From the NCBI GenBank assembly GCA_037310415.1, contig CP147780.1, forward strand, positions 192,001-256,000: a stretch of DNA of 64,000 bases, written 5' to 3'. The DNA is from Candidatus Atabeyarchaeum deiterrae (lineage in GTDB: Archaea > Asgardarchaeota > Atabeyarchaeia > Atabeyarchaeales > Atabeyarchaeaceae). Under the pieces are notes generated by a model that worked only from the letters and a program-made list of their open reading frames with translations, did no database searches and was not told where the DNA came from. How positions within the stretch are numbered: position 1 is the stretch's first letter; every line of letters begins with the position of its first letter. This document shows, piece by piece, positions 8,325-40,455 of the stretch. Both the position numbers and the translations under genes were made by a program.

Positions 8325-9617
8325 GTGAACAGTGTTATGGGCAACATCGATAGTGTCGATCCAACCTTCGTGACAGAACCCTCTGACGTGGATCCAGACA
8401 ACAACGTGATAGCGACTTACTACGTTGATGCAGATTTCTCGACTCTGAAAGCGGGCGAACAAATCGCCATCGAGGAGAGCACAGGCACCTGGACCGAGGT
8501 CTCAACTTCTAAGGAAAATGTGAAGAGACTTTCAGGCAAGGTCTTTGAGTACCAAAAAGGAAACGAAGGTACAATCAAGCTAGCCTTCCCACTTGAGCTC
8601 TTTGACGTTGAGTCCGGTATCCCCAACCTGCTGAGCGTAATTGCTGGCAACCTATTCGGACTCGCACCACTGAGAAATGTCAGGTTACAGGATGTTGAGT
8701 TACCCAAAGACTACATAAAGAGCTTCTCTGGGCCAAGATTTGGAATTGATGGAATTAGAAAAATAATCGGAACGACTAAAGAAGGGAGACCGCATGTTGG
8801 AACCATAATCAAACCTAAAGTGGGCTTAAGTCCGCGGCAGACCGCTGAAGTTGCTTATCAAGCAGCTATGGGTGGAGTCGACCTGATCAAAGACGATGAG
8901 ACTCTCACGAACCAGTCTTTCTGCCCCCTTGAAAAAAGGGTGTCTTTTGTGATGGAGAAGCTTGACAGAGTTAAGGGAGAGACTGGCAGAAAAGTCCTCT
9001 ACGCTGTAAACGTGTCGGCATATCATGAAAGAATGATGAAGCTAGCTCAAGTGGCAATAGACAACGGAGCAAACTGCCTGATGATTGACTTCCTGACTGC
9101 AGGATTCTCGGCACTACAAGCATTGTCATCCGAGGACTCCTTCAATGTTCCAATACATGTTCACAGAACCATGCATGCAGCACTTGACAGAAACCCGAAA
9201 CATGGCATAGCCATGATGGTCTTAGCTAAGCTTGCTCGGTTAGCGGGAGGAGACCAACTGCACACTGGAACAGCAGCGGGAAAAATGGACAGGGGAGGCG
9301 AGGCGGTGAGAGAAACGAACGACTTCCTTCGCTCCGAATGGGTTGGAATCAAAACCACATTTCCCGTCGCGTCAGGTGGAGTGCACCCCGGCATAGTTCC
9401 TGACAATGTTGAAGCGTTAGGGAAGGACTTGGTTATCCAAGCAGGAGGAGGAATCCACGGACATCCGATGGGAACCAAGAGCGGGGCAATGGCAATGAGA
9501 CAAGCCATTGACGCAGTTATGAAAAATGTCTCCTTAGAGGATTACGGGAAGACTCATAGCGAGCTTGCTTTAGCCCTAGAAAAGTGGGATAAGAGATATG
9601 GAAAAGTAACAGACTGA
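8325..9617 (+). CDS. rbcL: RuBisCO large subunit, form III
   Basis: EESTGTW, GTIIKPKVGL, DLIKDDE, HVHRTMH, HTGTAAGKM, SGG and QAGGGIHGHP motifs all intact. Confidence 0.93.
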   Translation: MNSVMGNIDSVDPTFVTEPSDVDPDNNVIATYYVDADFSTLKAGEQIAIEESTGTWTEVSTSKENVKRLSGKVFEYQKGNEGTIKLAFPLELFDVESGIPNLLSVIAGNLFGLAPLRNVRLQDVELPKDYIKSFSGPRFGIDGIRKIIGTTKEGRPHVGTIIKPKVGLSPRQTAEVAYQAAMGGVDLIKDDETLTNQSFCPLEKRVSFVMEKLDRVKGETGRKVLYAVNVSAYHERMMKLAQVAIDNGANCLMIDFLTAGFSALQALSSEDSFNVPIHVHRTMHAALDRNPKHGIAMMVLAKLARLAGGDQLHTGTAAGKMDRGGEAVRETNDFLRSEWVGIKTTFPVASGGVHPGIVPDNVEALGKDLVIQAGGGIHGHPMGTKSGAMAMRQAIDAVMKNVSLEDYGKTHSELALALEKWDKRYGKVTD

Positions 9618-9713
9618 ATCTAATTAAGGAAAACACTAATACACATGTAATTCGTTGTCTGTCTGAATCCAGAAACCGATGCTGACCACTGCTACCAGAG
9701 GTGTTGAGACGAT

Positions 9714-10358
9714 TTGCCCAAGGTGAAGAAATCCCAAATGAAGGAAGCAGCCAAAATCATCTTGCTTTTTGTGATCATTGGTGGCGGGGTTTTCGGGGCG
9801 AATGTAGCACTACAAGTAGCGATGGGCACTCCGATTCCTGTTGTGGTAGTGGTTTCTACGAGTATGGTGCCAACACTTAACGTTGGAGATGTATGCGTAA
9901 TCCGGAACGTTTCCGCTGACCAATATGTCGTTGGAAATCATACTACACGAACGGGCGACATTATCGTAATCGATGTCCACGAATGGGAAATAGCTCATAA
10001 CCTTCCGACAGATCCAGTCATACATAGAATTATCGACCGGATATATGACAATGGCACCTACTGGTTCAGAACACAGGGGGACAATAATCAGCCGCCAGAT
10101 GGCTGGGACTACGGCAAAGGCTCGGGATGGGTCGACCAGGATAGGGTCTACGGCAAAGTAATTCTCACAATACCTTGGATTGGATACATATTCCTGTTCT
10201 TAAGGGATGGAGGAGTCTTGATAGTTATCCCAATACTAGCCTTGATCATAGTTCTGATCTTCAGGGAAGAAGCATCCAAGATGCGCGAAAAAGCAAAATC
10301 GGGTTCCAACCTGACGACATTAGTTACGGGTGGCTGCCTATTGTTGGAAGTCGCGTAG
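9714..10358 (+). CDS. sec11: Signal peptidase I (archaeal/Sec11 type)
   Basis: TM then VVSTSMVPTL.VGD, VIHRII and TQGDNN motifs; C-terminal TM. Confidence 0.9.
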   Translation: MPKVKKSQMKEAAKIILLFVIIGGGVFGANVALQVAMGTPIPVVVVVSTSMVPTLNVGDVCVIRNVSADQYVVGNHTTRTGDIIVIDVHEWEIAHNLPTDPVIHRIIDRIYDNGTYWFRTQGDNNQPPDGWDYGKGSGWVDQDRVYGKVILTIPWIGYIFLFLRDGGVLIVIPILALIIVLIFREEASKMREKAKSGSNLTTLVTGGCLLLEVA

Positions 10359-26996: not shown

Positions 26997-27164
26997 AGCC
27001 ATAAACTGATGGCAGCCCTACATCAATGGTCGATATCAATTTGCTCGGTTATCCGCCAGCTGACTGTGAAATAGTGTTACTTGAACTGTCGCATAGGGGG
27101 TTTATGTCGATTGAGACGTGAGTCCAAACAAACTGCCGAGTATGAAGGATCACATGAAGAAACC

Positions 27165-28829
27165 ATGAGAACGCATGGTCCGCGAGTCATTAGAGCAAAT
27201 AGAGGAAACAGATTGGAGTGCAAAGGATGGCAACAGGAAGCTGCCCTCAGAATGCTTCAGAACAACCTAGATCCAGATGTGGCGAAGGATCCAGACAACC
27301 TGGTTGTCTACGGAGGAGCGGGAAAAGCAGCCAGAAACTGGGAGTGTTTTGACAATATTGTCGAGTCTCTTAAGCTACTGGAAAATGATGAGACCTTACT
27401 GATCCAGTCTGGCAAGCCTGTCGGAATACTTGAAACGCATGAGGATGCTCCGCGAGTTCTCATATCGAACGCAATGTTGGTTCCAAAGTGGGCAACCCTG
27501 GATGAGTTCAGAAGACTGGAGCAACTTGGATTGACAATGTACGGGCAGATGACTGCTGGAAGCTGGATATATATTGGGACTCAGGGAATACTCCAAGGAA
27601 CCTACGAAACGTTTGCAGCCTTAGGTAAGAAGCATTTCGGTGGAAGTCTGAAGGGTAAGCTAGTGCTCTCCGCGGGTCTGGGTGAGATGGGTGGAGCACA
27701 ACCACTCGCAGTCACAATGAATGAAGGAGTGGCTCTCGTAGTTGAGGTTGACAAGAACCATATTGAAAGAAGAATTAAGAAACAGTACTGCGACACGATG
27801 GTAGAGGGCATTGATGAAGCCATCTCAATTGCAGAGGAAGCTCTTGAGAAGAAAGAAGCGAGATCAATAGGGTTGCTCGGCAATGCAGCAGAAGTTCACC
27901 CAAAACTACTTGAAATGGGCATCAGGCCCGATGTGGTGACTGATCAGACAGCAGCACATGACCCACTGAACGGATACATACCAATGGAGATGAATCTTGA
28001 ACAAGCGACCGAACTAAGACGAGAAAACCCCGAAGAGTACATTAGGAAAGCTAAGATGTCGATGGCGACACAGGTCAAAGCCATGCTGGAGTTTCAGCGG
28101 AGGGGAAGTATAGTTTTCGATTACGGCAACAACATTCGGCAGCAAGCCCGCGATGAAGGCATCGAAGATGCATTCAAGATACCCGGATTTGTGCAGGCGT
28201 ACGTGCGCCCATTATTCTGTGAGGGCAGAGGTCCCTTCAGATGGGTCGCGCTTTCGGGTGATCCTGGAGACATCCACAGGCTCGACGACGTAGTTGCCAA
28301 GGAGTTTGCTTACAATGAAGGACTCGTGAGGTGGATCAAACTCGCAAGAGAGAAGGTCCAATTCCAAGGTCTGCCTGCCAGGGTATGCTGGCTGGGACTT
28401 GGTGAAAGAGCTAGATTCGGAAAGATAATCAATGACATGGTCAGAAAGAAGCAGCTCAGAGGTCCAATCGTGATAGGCAGAGACCACCTAGACTCAGGTT
28501 CAGTAGCATCACCTAACCGTGAGACGGAAGGAATGATTGACGGCAGTGACGCGATCGCTGATTGGCCGATCCTTAACGCGTTACTTAATGCTGTCAGTGG
28601 CGCTACATGGGTGTCAGTTCACCACGGTGGCGGAGTCGGTATAGGTTATTCTATTCATGCTGGCATGGTTATTGTGGCTGATGGAACCAAGGAAGCGGAA
28701 AAGAGACTAGAGAGAGTATTGACGGCTGACCCGTGGACTGGAGTAATACGACACGCCGATGCAGGATACCAAGACGCAATAAAAACGGCGCGGAGATTCA
28801 AACTCAAAGTTCCGATGCTTAAGGAATAA
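27165..28829 (+). CDS. hutU: Urocanate hydratase
   Basis: [36 protein letters not shown] and HHGGGVG motifs. Confidence 0.97.
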
Positions 28830-28853
28830 GCTGGTACAAGGGAAAATTGGACC

Positions 28854-29162
28854 CTAGATCTTGCTCAGTACAGAGTCCACTTTCCCTCTCATTCTTTCAC
28901 CAGACACGTCTCTTCTATCATCTATCTTGATGATGGTGCTCACTCGCTTGGCACCAGCCTTGAACAGGGCTTCGTGGGCTTCCTTAACCAAGCTCAGAAG
29001 TTTGTCGAGCGAATCAGTCTCAATTATCGTCCCCATGGGCGTTAGTTGCCACTTCACTCCCTTTGTTTGTTTGATCACTTTTAGAGCCTCAGCGATATAG
29101 GTAGACAACTCCGTGGAACTTGTTCCGAGCGGAGCAACTGACAACTCAGCCATGACTGTCAA
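28854..29162 (-). CDS. MTH1187-family thiamine-binding protein
   Basis: AELSVAPLG...LTPMGTIIE...RVSTIIKIDDRRD. Confidence 0.9.
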   Translation of the reverse strand: MTVMAELSVAPLGTSSTELSTYIAEALKVIKQTKGVKWQLTPMGTIIETDSLDKLLSLVKEAHEALFKAGAKRVSTIIKIDDRRDVSGERMRGKVDSVLSKI

Positions 29163-29262
29163 GGTTCATCTTATCCTCCAATCTGAGCACAAGTCGATTT
29201 CTCTTCTCTCAGAGAGTTATTTAAGCTGTTTCAACCCTTTTTATGATTTTGGTGTCCAACCA

Positions 29263-30228
29263 TTGAGACCTCCATGCGAACTAGTCGTCAAGCACTACCT
29301 ACCAGTGATACGCTCACTCATAGCGAGGGAGCTAATGAATACTCACAAGCTGAATCAGACGCAGATCGCTAAGCTTCTCGGGATAACCCAGCCAGCCGTG
29401 AGCAACTACCTTTCCTTGATCAGAGGCGAAGCCGACAAGACCTTCGATCGAAGGGAAGTCAGGGAAGTAGCACAAGAAATGGCTGGAGACTTGGTGAAAG
29501 GCAAGCTCTCGCTATCAGACTCAATCTACACGGTCTGCAAGCTATGCGTGAAGCTAAGGAGCGCTGGAGTCACTTGCAGCCTTCACAAGGAATCAGTGCC
29601 TGAACTGTCGGAAGAAGAATGCAAAGTGTGCTTGAGACTCTTCACCGAGGAGACCGAACCAGTTTCTGAAAGAATGAATGTAGTCAACAACATAAGGGCT
29701 GCCGTCTCAAAGCTAAGCGAGTCAAAGGAATTCTTATCGGTCATTCCTGAAGTCAGAACTAATCTGGTGATGGCAACAAAGAATGCCAAGTCAGAGATAG
29801 AAGTCGCCGGCATACCTGGTAGAATCCTATTAGCCAGAGAGAAGCTGAAAACCATAAGTGATCCTGAATTTGGAGCATCATTTCACCTTGCAAGGGTGAT
29901 CCTAGCCGCCATGGAAAGAAGGAAGGAGATACGTGGAGCCATCAATATAGCATTCAATAAGAAGATAGAACAAGCGATGCGCGACCTTAACATGGACGTT
30001 TACAGATTTGGCAGAGCAGACCTACCTTCTGAAACAGTTGAGAAAGACCCTATTGCATGGGCTGTCAAAAAAGCGACAAGCGAACTGGGCAAGACACCAG
30101 ATGCCCTAGTTGACGAAGGGGGTTACGGGGTTGAACCCGCCACATACATTTTCGGTTCATCAGCGCTAGATGTCGCGGAGACAGCCATAAACATCGCGAA
30201 AATCGTGACTCAGAAGAGACAAGAATAG
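29263..30228 (+). CDS. HTH-ThiN fusion (ThiR-like thiamine regulator)
   Basis: RPPCE..HTH (TQPAVSNYL), C-x2-C motifs, ThiN domain IPEVRTN..GIPGRI..FGASFHLAR..GGYGVEP. Confidence 0.85.
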   Translation: MRPPCELVVKHYLPVIRSLIARELMNTHKLNQTQIAKLLGITQPAVSNYLSLIRGEADKTFDRREVREVAQEMAGDLVKGKLSLSDSIYTVCKLCVKLRSAGVTCSLHKESVPELSEEECKVCLRLFTEETEPVSERMNVVNNIRAAVSKLSESKEFLSVIPEVRTNLVMATKNAKSEIEVAGIPGRILLAREKLKTISDPEFGASFHLARVILAAMERRKEIRGAINIAFNKKIEQAMRDLNMDVYRFGRADLPSETVEKDPIAWAVKKATSELGKTPDALVDEGGYGVEPATYIFGSSALDVAETAINIAKIVTQKRQE

Positions 30229-30319
30229 AAAGAGATCTCACAGCAAGTGTGACTCTTCTTATATCATCAATGTTAACATATGTTTCCTCGGATACAAGAA
30301 ACCAAAGAGGAGACCAGTT

Positions 30320-31321
30320 ATGGGCAAAGCGGCACTCTTACCGAAAGGGAAACTCAGAGGAGAAGAGCTCAAGAGAATTGTTCTTCAGCATCTTCCAATG
30401 CTTACTGAGTCAGCAACTCTAAACTTAGATTTCTCAAGGTTCTCAGCTGGAGGCAGAGATCTCATCGTATCATGCGATCCTATCATAGGTATTCCATCAG
30501 ACTACTATGGGTTCTCCGCTGTTCACGTACCAGGAGCAGATATAGCCGTTGCAGGAGTCAAGCCAAGATTCCTAGAACTGGGAGTATACTATCCACCTGA
30601 CTATCCTGCTGATTGGCTGGATCGGAACATGCGAGACTTAGGAGACGAAGCCAGAAGACTCGGGATCAAGATAGTTGGCGGACATACTGGTGGCTATGAT
30701 GGACTTTCTCTTCCACTAATATCATCAACCTGCATTGGCATCGTTGAGGATAGGTTATTGTCTCCCTCGCAGATAATGGCCGACGATAGACTATTGGTAT
30801 CTGGTCCCACAACACTCGAGTTGGCAGTATTCCTCTCATTTGTCGAATCCACAAAAATGGAGAAGCTTCTTGGAACCAAGAAAGTAGGCGAACTAAGAAA
30901 GGATATGAGAAAGATGACTGTCATCGAGCCAGCCCTTGCAGCAGCTGATGCTGGCGCTCGAGCAATGCATGACGTAGCCGAAGGAGGAACGTCACAGGCA
31001 TTAAAGGAGTTGTCAGAAGCCTCCAAGCTTGGCATCAAGTTGGACTACAGCAAGATACCGTGGAGCGCAGAAGGGCTTGCCGCTGCCGAAGCATATGGCG
31101 CCGATCCCCTTTCGACCTCATCTTTCGGAACCCTTCTAATAGCTGCTTCTAAAGAGAACGTTGACAGAATAATCAAAGCATTAAGTGAATATGGGAGACC
31201 TGTCAAGGAGGTGGGTCATTTCCTGGAAGGCAGCAGCATCACTGTGAAGAAGGGTGGAAAGGAATCTCGACTAGAGGTCAAAGAGGATATCTATGGGAAG
31301 TTTACGGCAAAACTCTCATGA
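30320..31321 (+). CDS. AIR-synthase (PurM/HypE/ThiL) superfamily protein
   Basis: SCDPI, IVGGHT and AMHDVAEGG motifs. Confidence 0.8.
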   Translation: MGKAALLPKGKLRGEELKRIVLQHLPMLTESATLNLDFSRFSAGGRDLIVSCDPIIGIPSDYYGFSAVHVPGADIAVAGVKPRFLELGVYYPPDYPADWLDRNMRDLGDEARRLGIKIVGGHTGGYDGLSLPLISSTCIGIVEDRLLSPSQIMADDRLLVSGPTTLELAVFLSFVESTKMEKLLGTKKVGELRKDMRKMTVIEPALAAADAGARAMHDVAEGGTSQALKELSEASKLGIKLDYSKIPWSAEGLAAAEAYGADPLSTSSFGTLLIAASKENVDRIIKALSEYGRPVKEVGHFLEGSSITVKKGGKESRLEVKEDIYGKFTAKLS

Positions 31322-31448
31322 TTGACATGCCCAATGAATACTGAGCGCTGAGCCTGCGAAGAGACCCTCCTCTTTTCCAAATCAGAACATTGCGAAAGGC
31401 ATAAATATATGCGACTTATATAACACCCAAATATCCCAGTCTTCGGCG

Positions 31449-32183
31449 GTGAAAAGTCTGATGAATAGAAGCACTAAGATTTCTTCGACTTCGGAAGGGG
31501 CAAGATCCAAGATAGTTGCACTGTCAGGAATCCTTTCAGCAGTCGTGGCTCTACTAACATTCTTGTTTGTTCCTGCAGCCATTCCTCTGGGAGGATTCGA
31601 TTCCTCTTCGATACTAATCCTTTCATTGCCAATTCTATTAGGACCAGAACTCGGAACAATAATAATATGCACGGGAGAATTCATTGGGACAGCATTTCTT
31701 CTGGCAGTGATGGGCGGACCATTATTCTTCCTTCCCGGGATAGTCGCAGTCAGGGGACCGGAGGCTTACTTTGTAGGCAAGATTGCTCGTGGCAAGTTCC
31801 TCGGCGGTTCTGGAGGCAAGGGAAGAGAGACGTTAGCCGCAATCATGGGTCCGATCTGGGAGACAGTTGGGTTTATCGCTGCAGATTACTACGTCTACTA
31901 CTTGATGTTTGGACTTCAAGTGGCGATCATTAATACCTTGATTGTCGCGTGGACGATTATTGACTTGATCTGGGTTGTGCCTTCCATAGCAGTCATATCA
32001 TCGGTAAGGAAATGGCTGAACGCAAACTACATGGACAAGCAGATGGGACTGGAAGGAGAAGTCGAGACAAAGAAGAAACTATTTAGAATTTCAGTAATAT
32101 TCATAATACTCACTTGGATATTGTTGTTCTTAGTGCCTTTCGTTTTTGCGTCTTGGGGTCCTCCGCCGCCCTCTAGCCCTTAG
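31449..32183 (+). CDS. Membrane protein, ECF S-component-like
   Basis: About 6-7 TMs; ALSGILSAVVALLT...LLGP..G pattern. Confidence 0.55.
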   Translation: MKSLMNRSTKISSTSEGARSKIVALSGILSAVVALLTFLFVPAAIPLGGFDSSSILILSLPILLGPELGTIIICTGEFIGTAFLLAVMGGPLFFLPGIVAVRGPEAYFVGKIARGKFLGGSGGKGRETLAAIMGPIWETVGFIAADYYVYYLMFGLQVAIINTLIVAWTIIDLIWVVPSIAVISSVRKWLNANYMDKQMGLEGEVETKKKLFRISVIFIILTWILLFLVPFVFASWGPPPPSSP

Positions 32184-32349
32184 TAGTAGTCGACTAACCG
32201 GCTAGCTTTTTAGTATTTATACTCCTTTTCCCAGAATAGCTATCTATCCGTATGCTTTGTAAGGACTCCATTGGCTAATGCGGGGACTTCATGAGATAGC
32301 CAGCTACCTTTAAGAGGCTGTGACTAGTAATGAAGGAGGAACAATCCGA

Positions 32350-33888
32350 ATGAGTGACGTGAGACTCACAACTCAAAAACTATCAATCAGAGATGTTGTC
32401 AGTGTTGCTCGTGGATTTGCCAAAGTGGAACTTTCCACCGAAGCCACAGAGAACGTCCAGAAAGCCCAGGCTACAGTTGAGAAAGCAGTTTCAGAAGGAA
32501 GAATTGTCTATGGCGTTACCACTGGATTCGGAGCTCTGAGCGACAAGATCATTTCCAAGAAAGATGTGGAGAAACTACAGAGAAATCTCCTGCGCAGTCA
32601 CGCTGCCGGTGTTGGCGAACCACTCGACACAGAGACAACTAGAGCGCTCATGATTCTCCGCGCCAATACGTTGGCAAGGGGCTACTCCGGCATTTCTTGT
32701 GATACTCTTCAACTTCTTATCAGAATGCTGAACGCGCATATTCATCCAGTAGTTCCCGGAAAAGGTTCTGTTGGCGCAAGCGGTGATCTCGCTCCGCTAG
32801 CACATATGGCGCTTGCCATGATTGGCGAGGGAAAAGTTGAGTACAAAGGTAGAATCATGCAATCTAATTGTGCTTTGAAGAAAGCTAGTTTAGATACTGC
32901 CGCGCTCGGTCCTAAGGAAGGCTTAGCACTGATCAATGGATCGCAATTGATCACTGCGATAGGAGCGCTTACTGTCCATGATTCTGAGAATCTGCTAAAG
33001 ACCTCTCAGGTAGCGACAGCGATGTCGTTGGAAGCGATGAACGGAAGAGTTGAACCTTTCGATAAGAGGATCCATATGGTCAGGCCTCATGCCGGGCAGA
33101 TCGCTGTCGCGGAAAACATCTTGAAAATAGTTGAAGGTAGCTTAATACTCCATGAACCCAGCAACAAGAGAGTTCAAGATGCTTATTCATTGAGATGTTC
33201 GCCTCAGGTTATTGGCGCATCCAAAGATGCCATAGAATATGTTCGGCGGGTTGTCGAAGTTGAGATCAACTCTGCAACAGATAACCCGTTGGTCTTTGCA
33301 GAAGATGGTGAGATATTATCTGGTGGCAACTTCCATGGCCAACCCTTGGCAATCGCAATGGACCTTCTAGCTATTTCACTCTGTAACATTGGTAACATAT
33401 GCGAGCGGAGAATCGCCAGGCTAACCGACGAAAAACTAAGTGGAGGATTGCCTCCATTCTTGCTGAAGAAGAGCAGTGAGGAGGGAGTAAGTAGCGGATT
33501 CATGATAGCTCAGTGCACAGCTGCATCCCTCGCTGCCGAAAACAGGTGTTTATCCAATCCTTCGAGCGTAAACTCGATTCCGACTAGCGCCAACCAAGAG
33601 GATCATGTAAGTATGGGGGTCACAGCTGCAAGAAAAGCGAAGGAGATTCTGAAGAACACTGAACACGTCGTTGCTATTGAACTACTATGTGCAGCACAAG
33701 GACTTGAGTTTAGAGGCGTGAATAATGCCGGGATAGGAACACTAGAGGCATATCGACTGATTAGAAAAGTCGCGCCAAGCTTGGAAGAGGATACTGAATT
33801 GTCTCCACTAATAGAAGCCGTGGCTAGCTTGGTTCACAAGGCGGAACTTGTAGACGCCATTGAGAAAAAAGTAGGCAAGTTCAACTAA
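32350..33888 (+). CDS. hutH: Histidine ammonia-lyase
   Basis: YGVTTGFG, MIO-forming GASGDLAPL, QDAYSLRC, GGNFHG and NQEDHVSMG motifs. Confidence 0.96.
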   Translation: MSDVRLTTQKLSIRDVVSVARGFAKVELSTEATENVQKAQATVEKAVSEGRIVYGVTTGFGALSDKIISKKDVEKLQRNLLRSHAAGVGEPLDTETTRALMILRANTLARGYSGISCDTLQLLIRMLNAHIHPVVPGKGSVGASGDLAPLAHMALAMIGEGKVEYKGRIMQSNCALKKASLDTAALGPKEGLALINGSQLITAIGALTVHDSENLLKTSQVATAMSLEAMNGRVEPFDKRIHMVRPHAGQIAVAENILKIVEGSLILHEPSNKRVQDAYSLRCSPQVIGASKDAIEYVRRVVEVEINSATDNPLVFAEDGEILSGGNFHGQPLAIAMDLLAISLCNIGNICERRIARLTDEKLSGGLPPFLLKKSSEEGVSSGFMIAQCTAASLAAENRCLSNPSSVNSIPTSANQEDHVSMGVTAARKAKEILKNTEHVVAIELLCAAQGLEFRGVNNAGIGTLEAYRLIRKVAPSLEEDTELSPLIEAVASLVHKAELVDAIEKKVGKFN

Positions 33889-33919
33889 CAGATCCTGCCT
33901 GTTTCATCCGAAAGAATAC

Positions 33920-35215
33920 TTATTCCACGATTCTCCCCTTTTCTGCCACCAACCTTCCTTTCTTGAAGACTTTTTCCGCCAAGTTAATGCCGTAGTGGTA
34001 CGGGAAATACCTGTGGTTGGGAGCGTCAAAAATGACTATATCCGCCATTTTTCCTTCTTCCAAAGTCCCCACCTCATGAGCTCGTTCTATTGAGTGAGCG
34101 GCATTGATTGTTGATGCCACAAGGGCCTCTTCTGTGGTCATTTTCATCTGCAGAACTGCAATGGTCATCATCATTTGCATCGATTCGCACATATCTGCTG
34201 CGCTTAGGTCAGTTCCCAATGCGACGGGCAATCCTGCGTTCATGATTTCTCTCGCCCTTGCATATGTGCCCAAATAGCAGAATGGAGTGGTCGGCAAGAA
34301 AGTGCCAATTATGCCCTTTTTTCTAAGGACTTCGATTTCCTCTGGGGGTGTAAAGATTAGATGGTCAGCTGAGATAACTCCCAACTCTGCCCCTAGTTTT
34401 GCTCCCCCGCTGTGGATAAGCCAGTCGGCATGAATTCTCAGCTTCATGCCATATTTCTTGCCAGTCTCAAGTATCCGCCTCGACTGTTCCACGTTGAAGT
34501 ATCCTTTCTCGCAGAAAACATCACAGTATTCGGCAAGTTTTCTCTTCGCGACTTCTGGGATCCATTTTCTGGCTATTTCATCTGTTAGCTGATCAACTTT
34601 GCCTTCGTACTCGAATGGAATTCCTTGGGCCATAAAAGTGGGGACAATGTCGATTGGATGCGCCTTATTGAGGGTCTTGATCATTTCCATCTGTCTGATT
34701 TCGCCTTGAAATGTCATTTCGTATCCGCTTTTCGCTTCTATCGTTGTCGTGCCGTGAATCAGCATCGTGTCAAGTATATGCGTAGTTCGTCTCAGCAGTT
34801 CCTCGGTGGAGGCCGCTCCTGTCTTCCTGAGAGTTGTTGGCATACCTCCTCCTTTGGCTTTGATTTCTAGGTACGGAATGCCTTTCACAGCCATTGCCTC
34901 AAGTTCTTCTTCTCTTGAGCCGGCGAAAACTAGGTGAACATGCGGGTCGATCAGCCCAGGTGTGACGAGTTTGCCGCTTGCATCTATGACTTCATATCCT
35001 TTCTCAAGTTTGTCTAAAACTTCCTTCGTAGTCCCAACAGCCATTATTTTTCCATCTTTGACTGCGACTGCTCCGTCTCTTATAATGCCAAGGTCGTTCA
35101 TTTCTTCTTTGATTTGGGGTCTGTCACTTTTCCCCTTCAGAGTGGTCAACTCATTTGCGTTGATTATTGTGAAATCAGCTTTCATTGCTTTGTCTTTCCC
35201 CTTTCTTGTTGACAA
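33920..35215 (-). CDS. hutI: Imidazolonepropionase
   Basis: PGLIDPHVHLVFAGSR..E, GTTTIEAKSGY, DVFCEKG and SADHL motifs. Confidence 0.92.
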   Translation of the reverse strand: MSTRKGKDKAMKADFTIINANELTTLKGKSDRPQIKEEMNDLGIIRDGAVAVKDGKIMAVGTTKEVLDKLEKGYEVIDASGKLVTPGLIDPHVHLVFAGSREEELEAMAVKGIPYLEIKAKGGGMPTTLRKTGAASTEELLRRTTHILDTMLIHGTTTIEAKSGYEMTFQGEIRQMEMIKTLNKAHPIDIVPTFMAQGIPFEYEGKVDQLTDEIARKWIPEVAKRKLAEYCDVFCEKGYFNVEQSRRILETGKKYGMKLRIHADWLIHSGGAKLGAELGVISADHLIFTPPEEIEVLRKKGIIGTFLPTTPFCYLGTYARAREIMNAGLPVALGTDLSAADMCESMQMMMTIAVLQMKMTTEEALVASTINAAHSIERAHEVGTLEEGKMADIVIFDAPNHRYFPYHYGINLAEKVFKKGRLVAEKGRIVE

Positions 35216-36544
35216 CTAGACGTCTAGATACTTCTTTCTCTCCCACTCATGCACGGTGAAGCTGAATTCTTTCCACTCTTTGGTCTTGAGTTGCAGGAAT
35301 TTCTCGCTGAATGCCTCACCTAAGGCATCCTGCAGGTACTTGTCTTCAGAGAACTCACTTAACGCCTCCCCTAGATTTCCCGGAAGTACCTCTATACCTC
35401 TCTCAGTCCTTTGTTTTTCACTCATCTCATAGATGTCTTCCTCTACGGGCTCCGGAAGCGCGATTTTTCTTTTGATGCCATCCAATCCAGCGGCCAGAAT
35501 GCCAGCAAATGCAGTGTAGAAATTGCATGATCCATCCGTGGGTCTGTACTCCACCCTAGTTCTCATTTCTTTTCCAGGTGGGACCCTGATAAGAACTGAC
35601 CGATTATACTTTGCCCATGAAAGATATACTGGGGCTTCCCAGCCTGGTACGAGCCTCTTGTACGAGTTAACTGACGAGCTAGTCAGCGCTACCAGAGCCT
35701 TTGCATGACTCAAAATACCTGCTATGAAGTCCAAGGCTGTCTTGCTTAGACCATAGCTTCCTTTCGGGTCATAGAATAGGTTCTCAGACTTTTCGTCATC
35801 TGTGAGGCTAACATGAGTGTGGAGTCCACATCCATATCCATCATGGAAGGGTTTCGGCATGAAAGAAGCGACAAGACCCTTTCTGGCCGCAGTCATTTTC
35901 ACAACAAACTTAACCAAATAATTGATGTCAGCCATTCTCAATGCATCAGTGTAGACCAAGTTCAGCTCGTACTTTCCAGGAGGCACTTCGTGGTGATGTT
36001 TTTCAACCGTGATACCGCTGTTCCTAAGATTTTCAGTAATTTCAAGTCTTACATCAATGCCGAGGTCTGCTGGGGGACTGGCTAGAAATCCCCCTTCGTC
36101 ATATCGTTTGATGCTGCCGTCCTCGCCTTTCTTGAATAGGAAGTATTCTATCTCGCTGCACGCGTTATACTTGACAGTGCTCCCTAAGCTTTCCTTAGAA
36201 TCTTCCATAACTTTCTTAAGAACAAACCTCGGGTCAACCTCAAAAGGCCTATCTGATTCTGGCTCGTAAATGTCACATATTACTCTTGCCATTTTCTGAG
36301 CGAAGAGATTTGGCGGCAATATGACAAATGTGTCTACAACTGGCATCAGCTTCAAGTCGCTTTCGCTTATGTCCACCATATCGACAGATGAGCCGTCCAT
36401 GTGTATACCCTCTTCAGCCACCTTCGGAAAAAGGTCAGAAGGCACCCAAAGAGAGTGCAGGATACCAGATATGTCCGTAAACTGTAACGCAATCTCTTTC
36501 ACGTTCTCCTTCTTGACAATCTTTGCAATTTCTGATTCGCTCAT
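35216..36544 (-). CDS. glnA: Glutamine synthetase type I
   Basis: DGSS..ESD, HHEV..KYE, FMPKP..HTHVS, NSYKRLVPGWEAP, NRS..IRVP and EYR motifs. Confidence 0.88.
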   Translation of the reverse strand: MSESEIAKIVKKENVKEIALQFTDISGILHSLWVPSDLFPKVAEEGIHMDGSSVDMVDISESDLKLMPVVDTFVILPPNLFAQKMARVICDIYEPESDRPFEVDPRFVLKKVMEDSKESLGSTVKYNACSEIEYFLFKKGEDGSIKRYDEGGFLASPPADLGIDVRLEITENLRNSGITVEKHHHEVPPGKYELNLVYTDALRMADINYLVKFVVKMTAARKGLVASFMPKPFHDGYGCGLHTHVSLTDDEKSENLFYDPKGSYGLSKTALDFIAGILSHAKALVALTSSSVNSYKRLVPGWEAPVYLSWAKYNRSVLIRVPPGKEMRTRVEYRPTDGSCNFYTAFAGILAAGLDGIKRKIALPEPVEEDIYEMSEKQRTERGIEVLPGNLGEALSEFSEDKYLQDALGEAFSEKFLQLKTKEWKEFSFTVHEWERKKYLDV

Positions 36545-36693
36545 TCTAGTCCCTCTGAGAACATCGCCTCTCCTTCATCTTATATTACTTTCTTAGACGC
36601 GCGCAAATATCTAAGAGTAAGTTGTATAAATGCTTGGCAACGAGACTCATATTTAGTGAGAACTGATGATTCCGAGGATTGTGAGATTTCAAG

Positions 36694-37608
36694 ATGGAGT
36701 TTAAGGTTAATGGGGTACCGGTTGACGATACTTTCTGCGAGACCTTTACAGTACGCGTTGCTAGGATACTTGTGACGTCTGTCAATAGGAAGTGGGCCTT
36801 AGAATCAGCATTGGAAGCCAAAGGTCTTGGGAGATCGGCTACTATTCCACCTTGCGAAGCATCTATAGAGGCTGAGGCTAGAACTGAAGAGACTCCTGAC
36901 GGTAGACCAGGTTTCATAATTCAATTCATCGACAGGAAGATCGAGCAACTAAAAGAATGGTTCATAGTTCGAGTGAGAAAGGGTGTAGTGCCATACCCTA
37001 AGACCAACGTGTTTGATGCTCTGCCAGGGGAGACAGCCGAGGAGTTCTTGGATATCAGAGGCACAATCATACAGACCTTCGGAGATGGATTTGAAGAGGA
37101 AGTCGAAGCTTTTGGAAAACAGGTTTACAGAATACCAAGGATGGACGGGTATTTTCATATTCAGAATAGATTCGGAATTGCGAAAGGCGTGGCTGGCGGC
37201 ATGTTCATGATTCTTGCAGAGACGGATGAAGCAGCACTGAAAGCCGCCGAGCGAGCAACTGAAGGCGTGAAATCCATTCCATATGTTGTCGGTAAGTTTG
37301 CTGCCTCTGGAACCAAGGTTGGAGGAAAGAAGTACAAGGATGCTGTCGCTACCACCAACGACGCATACTGCCCGAGCCTAGCGGGAAGCGAAGGTAGCAT
37401 GATTTCTAAGGACGTGAAATGTGTATACGAAGTCATAGTAAGTGGATTGATGCTAGAGAATGTGACCAGGGCAATGAAAGTTGGCATACAAAACGCCACA
37501 AAGATACGAGGAGTGCTAAGAATAACCGCGTCCAACTACGGTGGAACACTCGGAAAAGGAAAAATCTTGCTTCGCGACCTATTCAACTCTGAGAATCAAG
37601 GGGCTTAA
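36694..37608 (+). CDS. Formylmethanofuran:H4MPT formyltransferase (Ftr) family protein, divergent
   Basis: NGVPVDDTFCE.F, ETPDGRPG, FGDGFE, GVAGG, SGTKVG, ATTN..YCP and ITASNYGG.LG motifs. Confidence 0.85.
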   Translation: MEFKVNGVPVDDTFCETFTVRVARILVTSVNRKWALESALEAKGLGRSATIPPCEASIEAEARTEETPDGRPGFIIQFIDRKIEQLKEWFIVRVRKGVVPYPKTNVFDALPGETAEEFLDIRGTIIQTFGDGFEEEVEAFGKQVYRIPRMDGYFHIQNRFGIAKGVAGGMFMILAETDEAALKAAERATEGVKSIPYVVGKFAASGTKVGGKKYKDAVATTNDAYCPSLAGSEGSMISKDVKCVYEVIVSGLMLENVTRAMKVGIQNATKIRGVLRITASNYGGTLGKGKILLRDLFNSENQGA

Positions 37609-39495: not shown

Positions 39496-40455
39496 TCAAA
39501 TTGGACACTTAATTCCCGACTTTGGATCCGTCATCTTCTTGTTTTTCAGAGCCCATACAAGGTTCTTGGTGTTGTGTGCCAAGCCGTAATTGTAGTTCTT
39601 GTCAATTGTTATTATTCCCATGTCAAGTCCCTGTTGTCTGCTATTCACTAGATCGATGCAGCGTCTTGCAGAGTCCTGGGCGTTTGATCCTTCTTCAATG
39701 TACTGGCACGCAGTTTTGGCTAGGCAGAGTCTAACCGCAACTTCCCCTATTCCCGTGCAGCTAGCTGCTGAGTTCATGTCAGCGTAATTCCCGCCGCCGA
39801 TTATTGGAGTGTCTCCAATTCTGCCTGGTAGCTTGAGCATCAATCCGCCAGTCGAGGTAGCAGCGGCAGTGTTTCCATCGGAATCAATGGCTAGAGCTCC
39901 AACGGTTTCGCCGAGGTCGGGAAACAACTTCATGAGATCCATCGTTTTTGGAAGATAATCTAGTCTCCCCTCATGGAATTTCTTCTTAGCTTCCTTCCAC
40001 ATCTCGACACGTTCAGCTGTTCTTGGGTCACAGCGTTCGAGTCCGAATTTCTCGGCTATTCTCTCCGCAGAGGTACCAGCGACGAACACATGGTCCGTCT
40101 TCTCCATGATGGCTCTAGCCAGAGAAACTGGGTGGCGGACATTTGAAATCATGGCAACAGCCCCTGCGTCAAGAGACTTGCCATCAGAAATAGATGCGTC
40201 CATCTCAATGGTACCTTTGATTGTCAAGACGGATCCTGTACCTGCGTTGAAGCTAGGGTTATCCTCCATGATTCCCACGCATTCTTCAACAGCATCTAGT
40301 GCGCTTCCTTGCCGCTCTAGTATTGAAGAGGCTCCGTTGACAGCTTCGCTTACGCCTTTCTCCACAATCTTCTCCCTTCCGGATCTAACTTCGCCAGCTC
40401 CGCCGTGAGCAACGATCAGATAGTTGTGCAATAGCATAAACTTCACCAAACACAT
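39496..40455 (-). CDS. Isoaspartyl peptidase/L-asparaginase (Ntn hydrolase)
   Basis: HGGAG, FNAG.GS, ETVGA, TSTGG, GRIGDTP and TGIGE motifs. Confidence 0.92.
   Translation of the reverse strand: MCLVKFMLLHNYLIVAHGGAGEVRSGREKIVEKGVSEAVNGASSILERQGSALDAVEECVGIMEDNPSFNAGTGSVLTIKGTIEMDASISDGKSLDAGAVAMISNVRHPVSLARAIMEKTDHVFVAGTSAERIAEKFGLERCDPRTAERVEMWKEAKKKFHEGRLDYLPKTMDLMKLFPDLGETVGALAIDSDGNTAAATSTGGLMLKLPGRIGDTPIIGGGNYADMNSAASCTGIGEVAVRLCLAKTACQYIEEGSNAQDSARRCIDLVNSRQQGLDMGIITIDKNYNYGLAHNTKNLVWALKNKKMTDPKSGIKCPI

Follow-up and report, generated by a model that had tools for sequence, protein, structure and literature searches.

An Ftr-family paralogue in the hut/glnA region of Candidatus Atabeyarchaeum deiterrae as a probable terminal enzyme of urocanate and histidine degradation

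Genes of the hut/FtrL region and the C1 genes of the genome

The window considered here is a stretch of 64,000 nucleotides, positions 192001-256000 of the single-contig genome (2,756,679 bp, 97% complete) of Candidatus Atabeyarchaeum deiterrae. It holds genes of histidine utilization (hut), a glutamine synthetase (GS) gene and a divergent paralogue of Ftr, the formylmethanofuran:tetrahydromethanopterin (H4MPT) formyltransferase; this paralogue is called FtrL below. Comparative genomics suggests that FtrL is probably the terminal enzyme of a urocanate/histidine-to-glutamate module in H4MPT-using archaea, the one that takes off the one-carbon (C1) unit. The region is made up of the following features.

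27081-28829, + strand: hutU, urocanate hydratase, with three urocanase Pfam domains; TIGR01228 949 bits (cut-off 375)
29113-32183, + strand: an inserted trio, namely a helix-turn-helix-ThiN (ThiR-like) regulator, an AIR-synthase-family (ThiL/HypE-like) gene and an open reading frame of 244 residues, from Pfam/NCBIfam matches
32320-33888, + strand: hutH, histidine ammonia-lyase; TIGR01225 658 bits (cut-off 539)
33920-35215, - strand: hutI (HutI-A), a module-type imidazolonepropionase paralogue; TIGR01224 399.5 bits (cut-off 298)
35216-36544, - strand: glnA (GS-A), type I glutamine synthetase; TIGR00653 454 bits (cut-off 429)
36545-36693: spacer between the divergent genes glnA and FtrL, each of which has a TATA-like box of its own
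36694-37608, + strand: FtrL, an Ftr-family paralogue of 304 residues with PF01913 and PF02741; NF002554 294.7 bits

Open reading frames and family scores place hutU, hutH, hutI, glnA and the divergent Ftr homologue where the initial annotation had them. The first four all score above their NCBIfam equivalog cut-offs, and each is single-copy in the genome. For hutU, 27165 is probably the true start, as against the longest frame from 27081. The head-to-head arrangement of glnA-hutI and FtrL was described correctly, with 149 bp between glnA and FtrL. The statement that glnA abuts hutI without a gap holds for the longest glnA frame, which begins with TTG; the consensus of the orthologues favours a Met six codons further in, and with that start the gap to hutI becomes about 18 nt. 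AT-rich TATA-like boxes on both sides of the glnA-FtrL spacer are kept among the orthologous loci. A shared operator in this spacer, the 7-bp inverted repeat TCTTAGA-N12-TCTAAGA, was considered and rejected, as it is not kept in 15 orthologous intergenic regions.

No terminal enzyme of the known hut pathways was found. The initial annotation had reported no hutG, hutF or FTCD (formimidoyltransferase-cyclodeaminase) in the window, and this can be extended to the whole genome of 2,756,679 bp. In family searches of the complete 2.76-Mb genome, no match was obtained anywhere for the transferase domain FTCD_N (PF07837/PF02971), for the FTCD_C cyclodeaminase, for N-formylglutamate deformylase (FGase) or for HutF, and no HutG was found genome-wide above the cut-off. 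The sole arginase-fold gene is an agmatinase (262.5 bits) adjoining deoxyhypusine synthase; it reaches 157 bits on HutG, for which the cut-off is 229. Fhs and the PF00551 formyltransferase were likewise not found in this genome.

The genome has three Ftr-family genes, namely a canonical copy, FtrL and a purD-linked copy, so that FtrL is not the sole Ftr, on which the initial proposal depended. The canonical Ftr (NF002554 415.6 bits, TIGR03119 394.2 bits) lies at contig position 834 kb beside mtd, the gene of F420-dependent methylene-H4MPT dehydrogenase; FtrL is 40% identical to it. The third paralogue, of 342 residues, is located outside the window at contig positions 156553-157581 on the - strand, between purD and an ArgE/DapE-type deacylase. 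It scores 259 bits on NF002554 and falls into a 12-row clade of its own with a Shimodaira-Hasegawa-like approximate likelihood ratio (SH-aLRT) of 99; in the sister genome purF comes next. Neither a PurN-type (PF00551) formyltransferase nor a PurT above cut-off is present in the genome, and for this reason the third paralogue could be an H4MPT-dependent glycinamide ribonucleotide formyltransferase.

The trio inserted between hutU and hutH has not been assigned to the pathway. The same insert is found in the sister genome (L026), and the Bathyarchaeia hut operons of loci L009 and L019 are without it. Near the FtrL module there is also a plant-type asparaginase/isoaspartyl peptidase (PF01112), an ammonia-releasing enzyme, at 39496-40455 on the - strand. 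Genes of this family also recur close to the FtrL module or hutU, at most a few kb away, in L005, L015, L017, L023, L026, L039, L040, L045 and L046; they are 46-50% identical to the window copy, and 75% in the sister genome.

Sequence, fold and phylogeny of FtrL

FtrL contains both lobes of Ftr (PF01913 130.5 bits, PF02741 144.2 bits) and stays just under the cut-offs of the canonical-Ftr equivalogs, with 294.7 bits against 297 for NF002554 and 286 against 292.6 for TIGR03119. Its Pfam matches are to the Ftr families only. It scores 240 bits to each of the Ftr structures 1M5H and 1FTR. The motifs quoted initially, KGLGRSATIPPC and RVRKGVVPYP, both occur in FtrL; as had been described, they line up with TGFGTSVIMCP and R(L/I)GQCV(L/M)TAP of these two structures. 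The catalytic, oxyanion-stabilising glutamate, Glu245 of Ftr in Methanopyrus kandleri numbering, corresponds to E246 of FtrL in the motif VKCVYEVIV and is kept in 100% of 115 FtrL orthologues. The equivalent residue of FhcD is Glu252 (PMC6926001). The STNDAYCP segment is conserved in FtrL too.

The AlphaFold2 (AF2) model of FtrL has a predicted local distance difference test (pLDDT) score of 94. VIA-align superimposes it on M. barkeri Ftr (1M5S) with a Z of 38 and a root-mean-square deviation of 1.6 Å over 292 residues at 40% identity. The initial annotation had also invoked a structural likeness between Ftr and the transferase domain of FTCD, of which the fold search gave no confirmation. In a search of 48,161 representative chains, the FTCD transferase domain was not among the 50 best structural matches to FtrL, and below Ftr itself only generic ferredoxin-like matches with Z of 7.6 or less were obtained. 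With Ftr/FhcD (EC 2.3.1.101; 1FTR, 2FHJ, 1M5H, 1M5S, 6S6Y), FtrL thus shares the two-lobe fold, the catalytic Glu and several invariant segments, and presumably the same chemistry, the transfer from an N-formyl amine to N5 of a pterin.

At least 15 fixed differences separate FtrL from canonical Ftr, and they adjoin family-invariant residues (positions 15, 29, 50, 52, 96, 103, 170, 201-220, 247-248 and 285). The gain of basic residues in FtrL, as compared with canonical Ftr, was rightly noted in the initial annotation; it is not specific to the hut-linked proteins. K43, R47, R81, K82, R95, K96 and K201 are equally fixed in planctomycete-type relatives and in a bacterial clade paired with FGase (see below). 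Y101, G211 and V247 are common to FtrL and the FGase-paired subclade only, and the residues found in FtrL alone are T285 (Lys elsewhere), C15 and W89. Longer Ftr-domain representatives were set aside as Fwd/Fhc-type fusions of canonical Ftr, which are uninformative on FtrL.

More than 1,300 homologues of FtrL were found in a large protein collection, and the best 120 of them, at 72-99% identity, bear source labels of Bathyarchaeia and Asgard. Maximum-likelihood trees of 81 and 105 rows were computed with the quick search of IQ-TREE under LG+G4. FtrL is monophyletic (SH-aLRT 97-98), which is the hut-linked Ftr clade that the initial annotation had proposed to look for by phylogeny. It stands apart from the canonical clade, to which the genome's own canonical Ftr belongs together with the proteins of Archaeoglobaceae and of methanogens including Methanobrevibacter, and apart from the purD-linked third clade.

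The sister of FtrL is a bacterial clade of planctomycete-type proteins (SH-aLRT 99 for the union). One planctomycete-type relative is located near genes of methylene-H4MPT dehydrogenase and Mch, and this member of an H4MPT cluster may be an ordinary FhcD. Nested in the planctomycete-type clade is a long-branched bacterial subclade (P0123 and P0271-P0275), which is 43-49% identical to FtrL. Each of the three loci below, on separate contigs, has a gene of this subclade in divergent orientation to a bona fide N-formylglutamate deformylase gene (TIGR02017 335-346 bits, cut-off 278.75), and L057 bears a fragment of the deformylase gene.

L037, 4786-6688: Ftr-like gene and TIGR02017 gene
L054, 4879-6921: Ftr-like gene and TIGR02017 gene
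L055, 5037-6996: Ftr-like gene and TIGR02017 gene

The FGase pairing connects the wider clade with N-formylglutamate on grounds separate from the archaeal data. It is possible that such a pair forms a methanofuran-free route between formyl-H4MPT and formate. The FGase-paired Ftr-like gene scores about 203 bits on NF002554, and a gene for a VTT-domain membrane protein comes next.

The HutI-GS-FtrL unit, its distribution and its M20 counterpart

Proteins of the window were searched by tblastn against 23 loci around FtrL orthologues of at least 67% identity. HutI-GS adjoins FtrL in 19 out of 19 loci with enough flanking DNA, from Bathyarchaeia and Asgard archaea, and two further loci end at a contig edge. 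The hut linkage, whose conservation had been left to a neighbourhood survey, is therefore kept in every informative orthologous locus of two phyla. The usual layout is divergent; L009 and L019 are one-strand operons in the order FtrL-GS-HutI-HutU-HutH with gaps of 15-140 nt. The genes beside FtrL are always those of HutI-A and GS-A and never fwd, mch or mtd. Around hutU and the module, no extra conserved pathway gene was found in the FtrL genomes, and the neighbours are housekeeping genes (Sua5, CBS, UbiD, Cgi121).

Between this genome and Bathyarchaeia the identities are 72-82% for FtrL, 75-88% for HutI and 63-87% for GS, and 66-68% for HutU and 54-55% for HutH. FtrL, HutI and GS are as alike across Asgard archaea and Bathyarchaeia as they are between two genera of Atabeyarchaeia, which is not the case for HutU and HutH. 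The triad thus behaves like a single unit that moves laterally, and the high cross-phylum identity suggests its lateral transfer.

Both partners of FtrL have features of their own. HutI-A is the only HutI homologue in this genome and is 75-88% identical to orthologues that always stand beside GS-A. It keeps the metal ligands of Bacillus subtilis HutI (2BB0), H80, H82, H249 and D324, and also the carboxylate-binding R89, Y102 and Y152 as well as H272 (2BB0 numbering). The pocket is altered at E252, which is replaced by Trp (HADW vs HAD(E/Q)), at H185, which is replaced by Gln, and in the segment TDFNPG, which reads TDLSAA. A second HutI (HutI-B), 45-49% identical to HutI-A, is carried by 7 of the 17 other FtrL genomes; most of the Bathyarchaeia FtrL genomes with HutI-B are without hutH. 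In the six loci where this can be seen, HutI-B lies directly upstream of hutU. It keeps HADE and TDFNP and scores 430-477 bits on TIGR01224 vs 387-409 bits for HutI-A. Examples from Bathyarchaeia FtrL genomes, with 430-471 bits on TIGR01224, are the following.

L038, 5599-6924: HutI-B
L040, 6504-7910: HutI-B
L017, 11035-12279: HutI-B

HutI-A is the sole HutI in at least eight hutU-positive genomes, two of them complete, and must therefore still open the imidazolone ring. As judged from the alignment, its remodelled pocket would be compatible with an added deiminase activity. A prediction of the HutI-A/FtrL complex gave no support (score 0.00), which is evidence neither for nor against binding. 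GS-A is the sole GS-family gene of this genome, and each of 17 GS-A sequences has all of the catalytic motifs DGSS, ExE, HHEV..E, H.H, KRLVPG.EAP, IRVP and E.R. In most of the other FtrL genomes the GS family has two to four members; in the three compared outside Atabeyarchaeia (G001, G007 and G011), the second GS outscores GS-A on TIGR00653 (482-509 vs 444-459 bits).

The distribution of FtrL was compared with that of the known terminal enzyme FTCD. Among the 17 other FtrL genomes, 14 have hutU, none has FTCD_N and none has HutG above cut-off. Mch was found in 23 of 26 FtrL genomes, and the assemblies of the three in which it was not matched are incomplete. hutU, FTCD_N, FtrL and HutI were also sought in an even sample of 151 Asgard genomes; only counts are given, as related genomes are not independent. 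hutU is present in 101 of these genomes, FTCD_N in 78 and orthologues of FtrL in 11, and the orthologues (68-100% identity) are separated by a clean gap from other Ftr homologues, which are at 48% or below. FTCD_N is absent from all 11 Asgard genomes with FtrL, and FtrL and FTCD are mutually exclusive in the 168 genomes examined. Within one Asgard family, hutU is immediately adjacent to FTCD in 15 of 15 genomes of genus g13, which have no FtrL, while its sister genus g20 has FtrL in 4 of 4 and FTCD in 0 of 4; such a split is the pattern expected of non-orthologous displacement. A further observation was made in the Asgard genome G139, where FTCD_N, HutI, hutU and a 658-residue open frame with an Ftr domain lie within 12 kb (contig C8, 8147-20487); this frame resembles the Ftr-FwdC/FhcC-type fusion P0149.

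Module-type HutI (67-85% identity) was found in 10 of the 11 Asgard FtrL genomes; the exception, G039, is 81% complete. Module-type HutI-A (67-74% identity) and GS-A were also detected in five genomes of family f21 that have no Ftr-family gene of any kind and no FTCD. Each of the five has, at the position of FtrL and divergent to the GS-HutI pair, a CpsA-like M20 N-acyl-amino-acid amidohydrolase (TIGR01891 345-347 bits), and hutH is on the far side of the M20 gene. The unit therefore reads HutH - M20 aminoacylase <> GS-A - HutI-A, and it occupies the following positions.

L058, 8637-12561: f21 M20 module, the M20 aminoacylase at 8637-9818
L059, 5944-10038: f21 M20 module
L060, 7126-11128: f21 M20 module
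L061, 4645-8715: f21 M20 module
L062, 424-4493: f21 M20 module

Two f21 genomes that have FTCD carry another type of HutI, at 37-39% identity, and among the 151 Asgard genomes the module-type HutI never co-occurs with FTCD. The genome of Ca. A. deiterrae has no homologue of the f21 M20 protein. In the f21 unit the same module has a hydrolytic form. We regard this N-acyl amidohydrolase in the same slot as the strongest argument that FtrL removes an N-linked C1 unit from the product of HutI, and also that N-formylglutamate is a likelier product than the amidine formiminoglutamate.

Proposed route, alternatives and significance

In the route proposed here, HutH and HutU would convert histidine by way of urocanate into imidazolonepropionate, and HutI-A would open the ring to formiminoglutamate and possibly also deiminate the latter to N-formylglutamate and NH3. 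FtrL would then act by Ftr chemistry, N5 of H4MPT attacking the N-linked C1 carbon and the conserved Glu stabilising the intermediate. H4MPT would in this manner receive a formyl group (more likely) or a formimino group from glutamate's alpha-amino nitrogen, and glutamate would be released. The resulting formyl- or methenyl-H4MPT would enter the Mch/Mtd branch, and GS-A would consume the remaining products, glutamate and NH3. We infer the substrate (formyl- or formimino-glutamate), the pterin, the direction of the reaction and the bifunctionality of HutI-A. If FtrL is terminal, a rough division makes formyl the somewhat better candidate for the transferred group and leaves formimino a sizeable share. 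The formyl donor is favoured because of the M20 and FGase associations, the conserved formyl-transfer chemistry and a release of NH3 that matches GS; the formimino donor is the alternative because no recognisable deiminase is present. The acceptor would be H4MPT rather than folate in view of the family membership, of Mch in nearly all carriers and of the absence of Fhs and PF00551 here.

The proposal of the initial annotation, a hut variant that passes the C1 unit to H4MPT, is thus supported by comparative genomics in its outline and modified in four respects, as the basic residues mark a wider clade, hutH is absent from most FtrL genomes, hutI is an altered paralogue and the donor is more likely formyl- than formimino-glutamate.

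Several points weigh against the proposed route. hutH is present in only 5 of the 17 other FtrL genomes and missing from 12, which ties the module to the conversion of urocanate to glutamate rather than strictly to histidine; in FtrL genomes without hutH, urocanate is probably the entry substrate. FtrL is rare, with 2 of 121 genomes in a class-wide sample of Bathyarchaeia. Lateral transfer inflates the locus counts, and genomes within a clade are not independent observations. Since the basic residues are common to the planctomycete-type relatives, they are no specific evidence for a glutamate site. A formyl donor needs a formiminoglutamate deiminase, none of which is recognisable, and this step depends on the putative second activity of HutI-A; a formimino donor would go with a cyclodeaminase, and none is present. 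The support for the route is comparative throughout. Published in situ transcript counts are very low (hutI 10, hutH 3, hutU 0 and ftr, with the three genes lumped, 1; PMC11291895).

Three other explanations have to be weighed. It is unlikely, in our estimate, that the pathway is finished by something else, be it a hydrolase that escaped recognition, an additional activity of HutI-A leading to glutamate and formate or formamide, or non-enzymatic decay, with FtrL as an accessory in formyl scavenging or regulation. The product of HutI-A is indeed uncertain given the remodelled pocket (E252W, TDFNPG to TDLSAA), many genomes have HutI-A plus the more canonical HutI-B beside hutU, and the complex of HutI-A with FtrL is not supported by prediction (score 0.00, neutral on binding). 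However, hutU and the module are not accompanied by any further conserved gene, their conserved neighbours being housekeeping genes, and a dedicated amidohydrolase is found where FtrL is missing, which speaks against completion of the pathway by HutI-A alone. A reverse reaction independent of histidine is a little harder to accept and must be called quite unlikely. FtrL would then transfer the formyl group from formyl-H4MPT to free glutamate, with N-formylglutamate as carrier, as a methanofuran-free analogue of FhcD, and the hut and GS neighbours would reflect shared nitrogen/glutamate regulation only. The nearest relatives of FtrL are bacterial, one of them in an H4MPT C1 cluster, and a subclade is paired with N-formylglutamate deformylase, so that the two enzymes together would yield formate from formyl-H4MPT. 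The Ftr reaction is also near equilibrium, transfer from formyl-H4MPT to the furan carrier being +4.4 kJ/mol (PMC6926001). Against this, the archaeal genomes are without an FGase for the release of formate, FtrL occurs in one-strand operons with hutI, hutU and hutH and is mutually exclusive with FTCD, and an amidohydrolase in the FtrL slot is sensible only if the C1 unit is taken off glutamate.

That FtrL is simply a second formylmethanofuran:H4MPT formyltransferase isoenzyme, next to glnA-hutI by accident of a laterally moved gene block, appears the least probable of the three. It would agree with the NF002554 score of 294.7 bits, which is barely below 297, with a fold and catalytic Glu identical to those of Ftr, with the published annotation, which treats all three copies as Wood-Ljungdahl ftr (PMC11291895), and with the block transfer suggested by the high cross-phylum identity. 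Nevertheless, a canonical Ftr already stands beside mtd, FtrL has a well-supported clade to itself and 15-plus fixed differences by family-invariant residues, and the linkage survives rearrangement, as divergent and co-directional layouts are both found. Moreover, an isoenzyme does not explain the anticorrelation of FtrL with FTCD, nor why an M20 gene takes the place of FtrL.

A broader form of the terminal role of FtrL can also be put forward, though we consider it doubtful. The whole clade, that is, FtrL, the FGase-paired subclade and perhaps the planctomycete-type 'FhcD', would use free glutamate as partner amine instead of methanofuran, and N-formylglutamate would be a small formyl-carrying molecule that connects the C1 pool of H4MPT with formate (through FGase or M20) and with histidine/urocanate catabolism. 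HutI-A would be a bifunctional imidazolonepropionase/formiminoglutamate deiminase giving N-formylglutamate and ammonia, and the latter would be fixed at once by GS-A.

FtrL as a terminal C1-removing enzyme can be compared with four known systems. It differs from Ftr/FhcD in forming a separate clade below the NCBIfam cut-off, in its hut and GS neighbours, in its coexistence with canonical Ftr and in the proposed donor, an N-substituted glutamate and not methanofuran. FTCD (EC 2.1.2.5, 4.3.1.4; PF07837, PF04961) has the pathway position proposed for FtrL, since it keeps the C1 unit from the product of HutI on a pterin and frees glutamate, and it adjoins hutU in related Asgard genomes. In Prometheoarchaeum MK-D1, hutUHI is beside fhs and FTCD is present as well (PMC7015854 supplement). 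FTCD, however, has no sequence relation to FtrL, its acceptor is folate as against the presumed H4MPT, and the FtrL genome has no cyclodeaminase. With the Pseudomonas-type route through HutF and HutG/FGase (TIGR02017), the FtrL module likely has N-formylglutamate as a common intermediate. The archaeal genomes, by contrast, have no homologue of HutF or FGase, and FtrL would pass the formyl group to a pterin rather than release formate. In methylotroph Fhc (FhcD plus the amidohydrolase FhcA, PMC6926001), as in the FtrL module, an Ftr-family transferase is teamed with an enzyme of the amidohydrolase superfamily acting on an N-formyl amine. HutI-A, unlike FwdA/FhcA, belongs to the imidazolonepropionase family; the FhcB/FhcC scaffolds are missing, and no methylofuran is implied.

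In the literature searched, no account of an Ftr-linked hut route was found. The text of the Atabeyarchaeia genome paper is silent on histidine and on Ftr paralogues, and its table assigns three Ftr genes to Wood-Ljungdahl ftr (PMC11291895). If the proposed role of FtrL is true, this table, which treats all three paralogues alike, would need correction, and FtrL would be the first Ftr-family enzyme with an amino-acid-derived donor. It would provide a fourth ending of histidine/urocanate degradation, after HutG, HutF with FGase, and FTCD. Moreover, it would link amino-acid fermentation directly to the Wood-Ljungdahl pathway's H4MPT branch in Asgard archaea and Bathyarchaeia, groups whose carbon and nitrogen metabolism has a central place in models of carbon cycling in sediments and wetlands and of eukaryogenesis.

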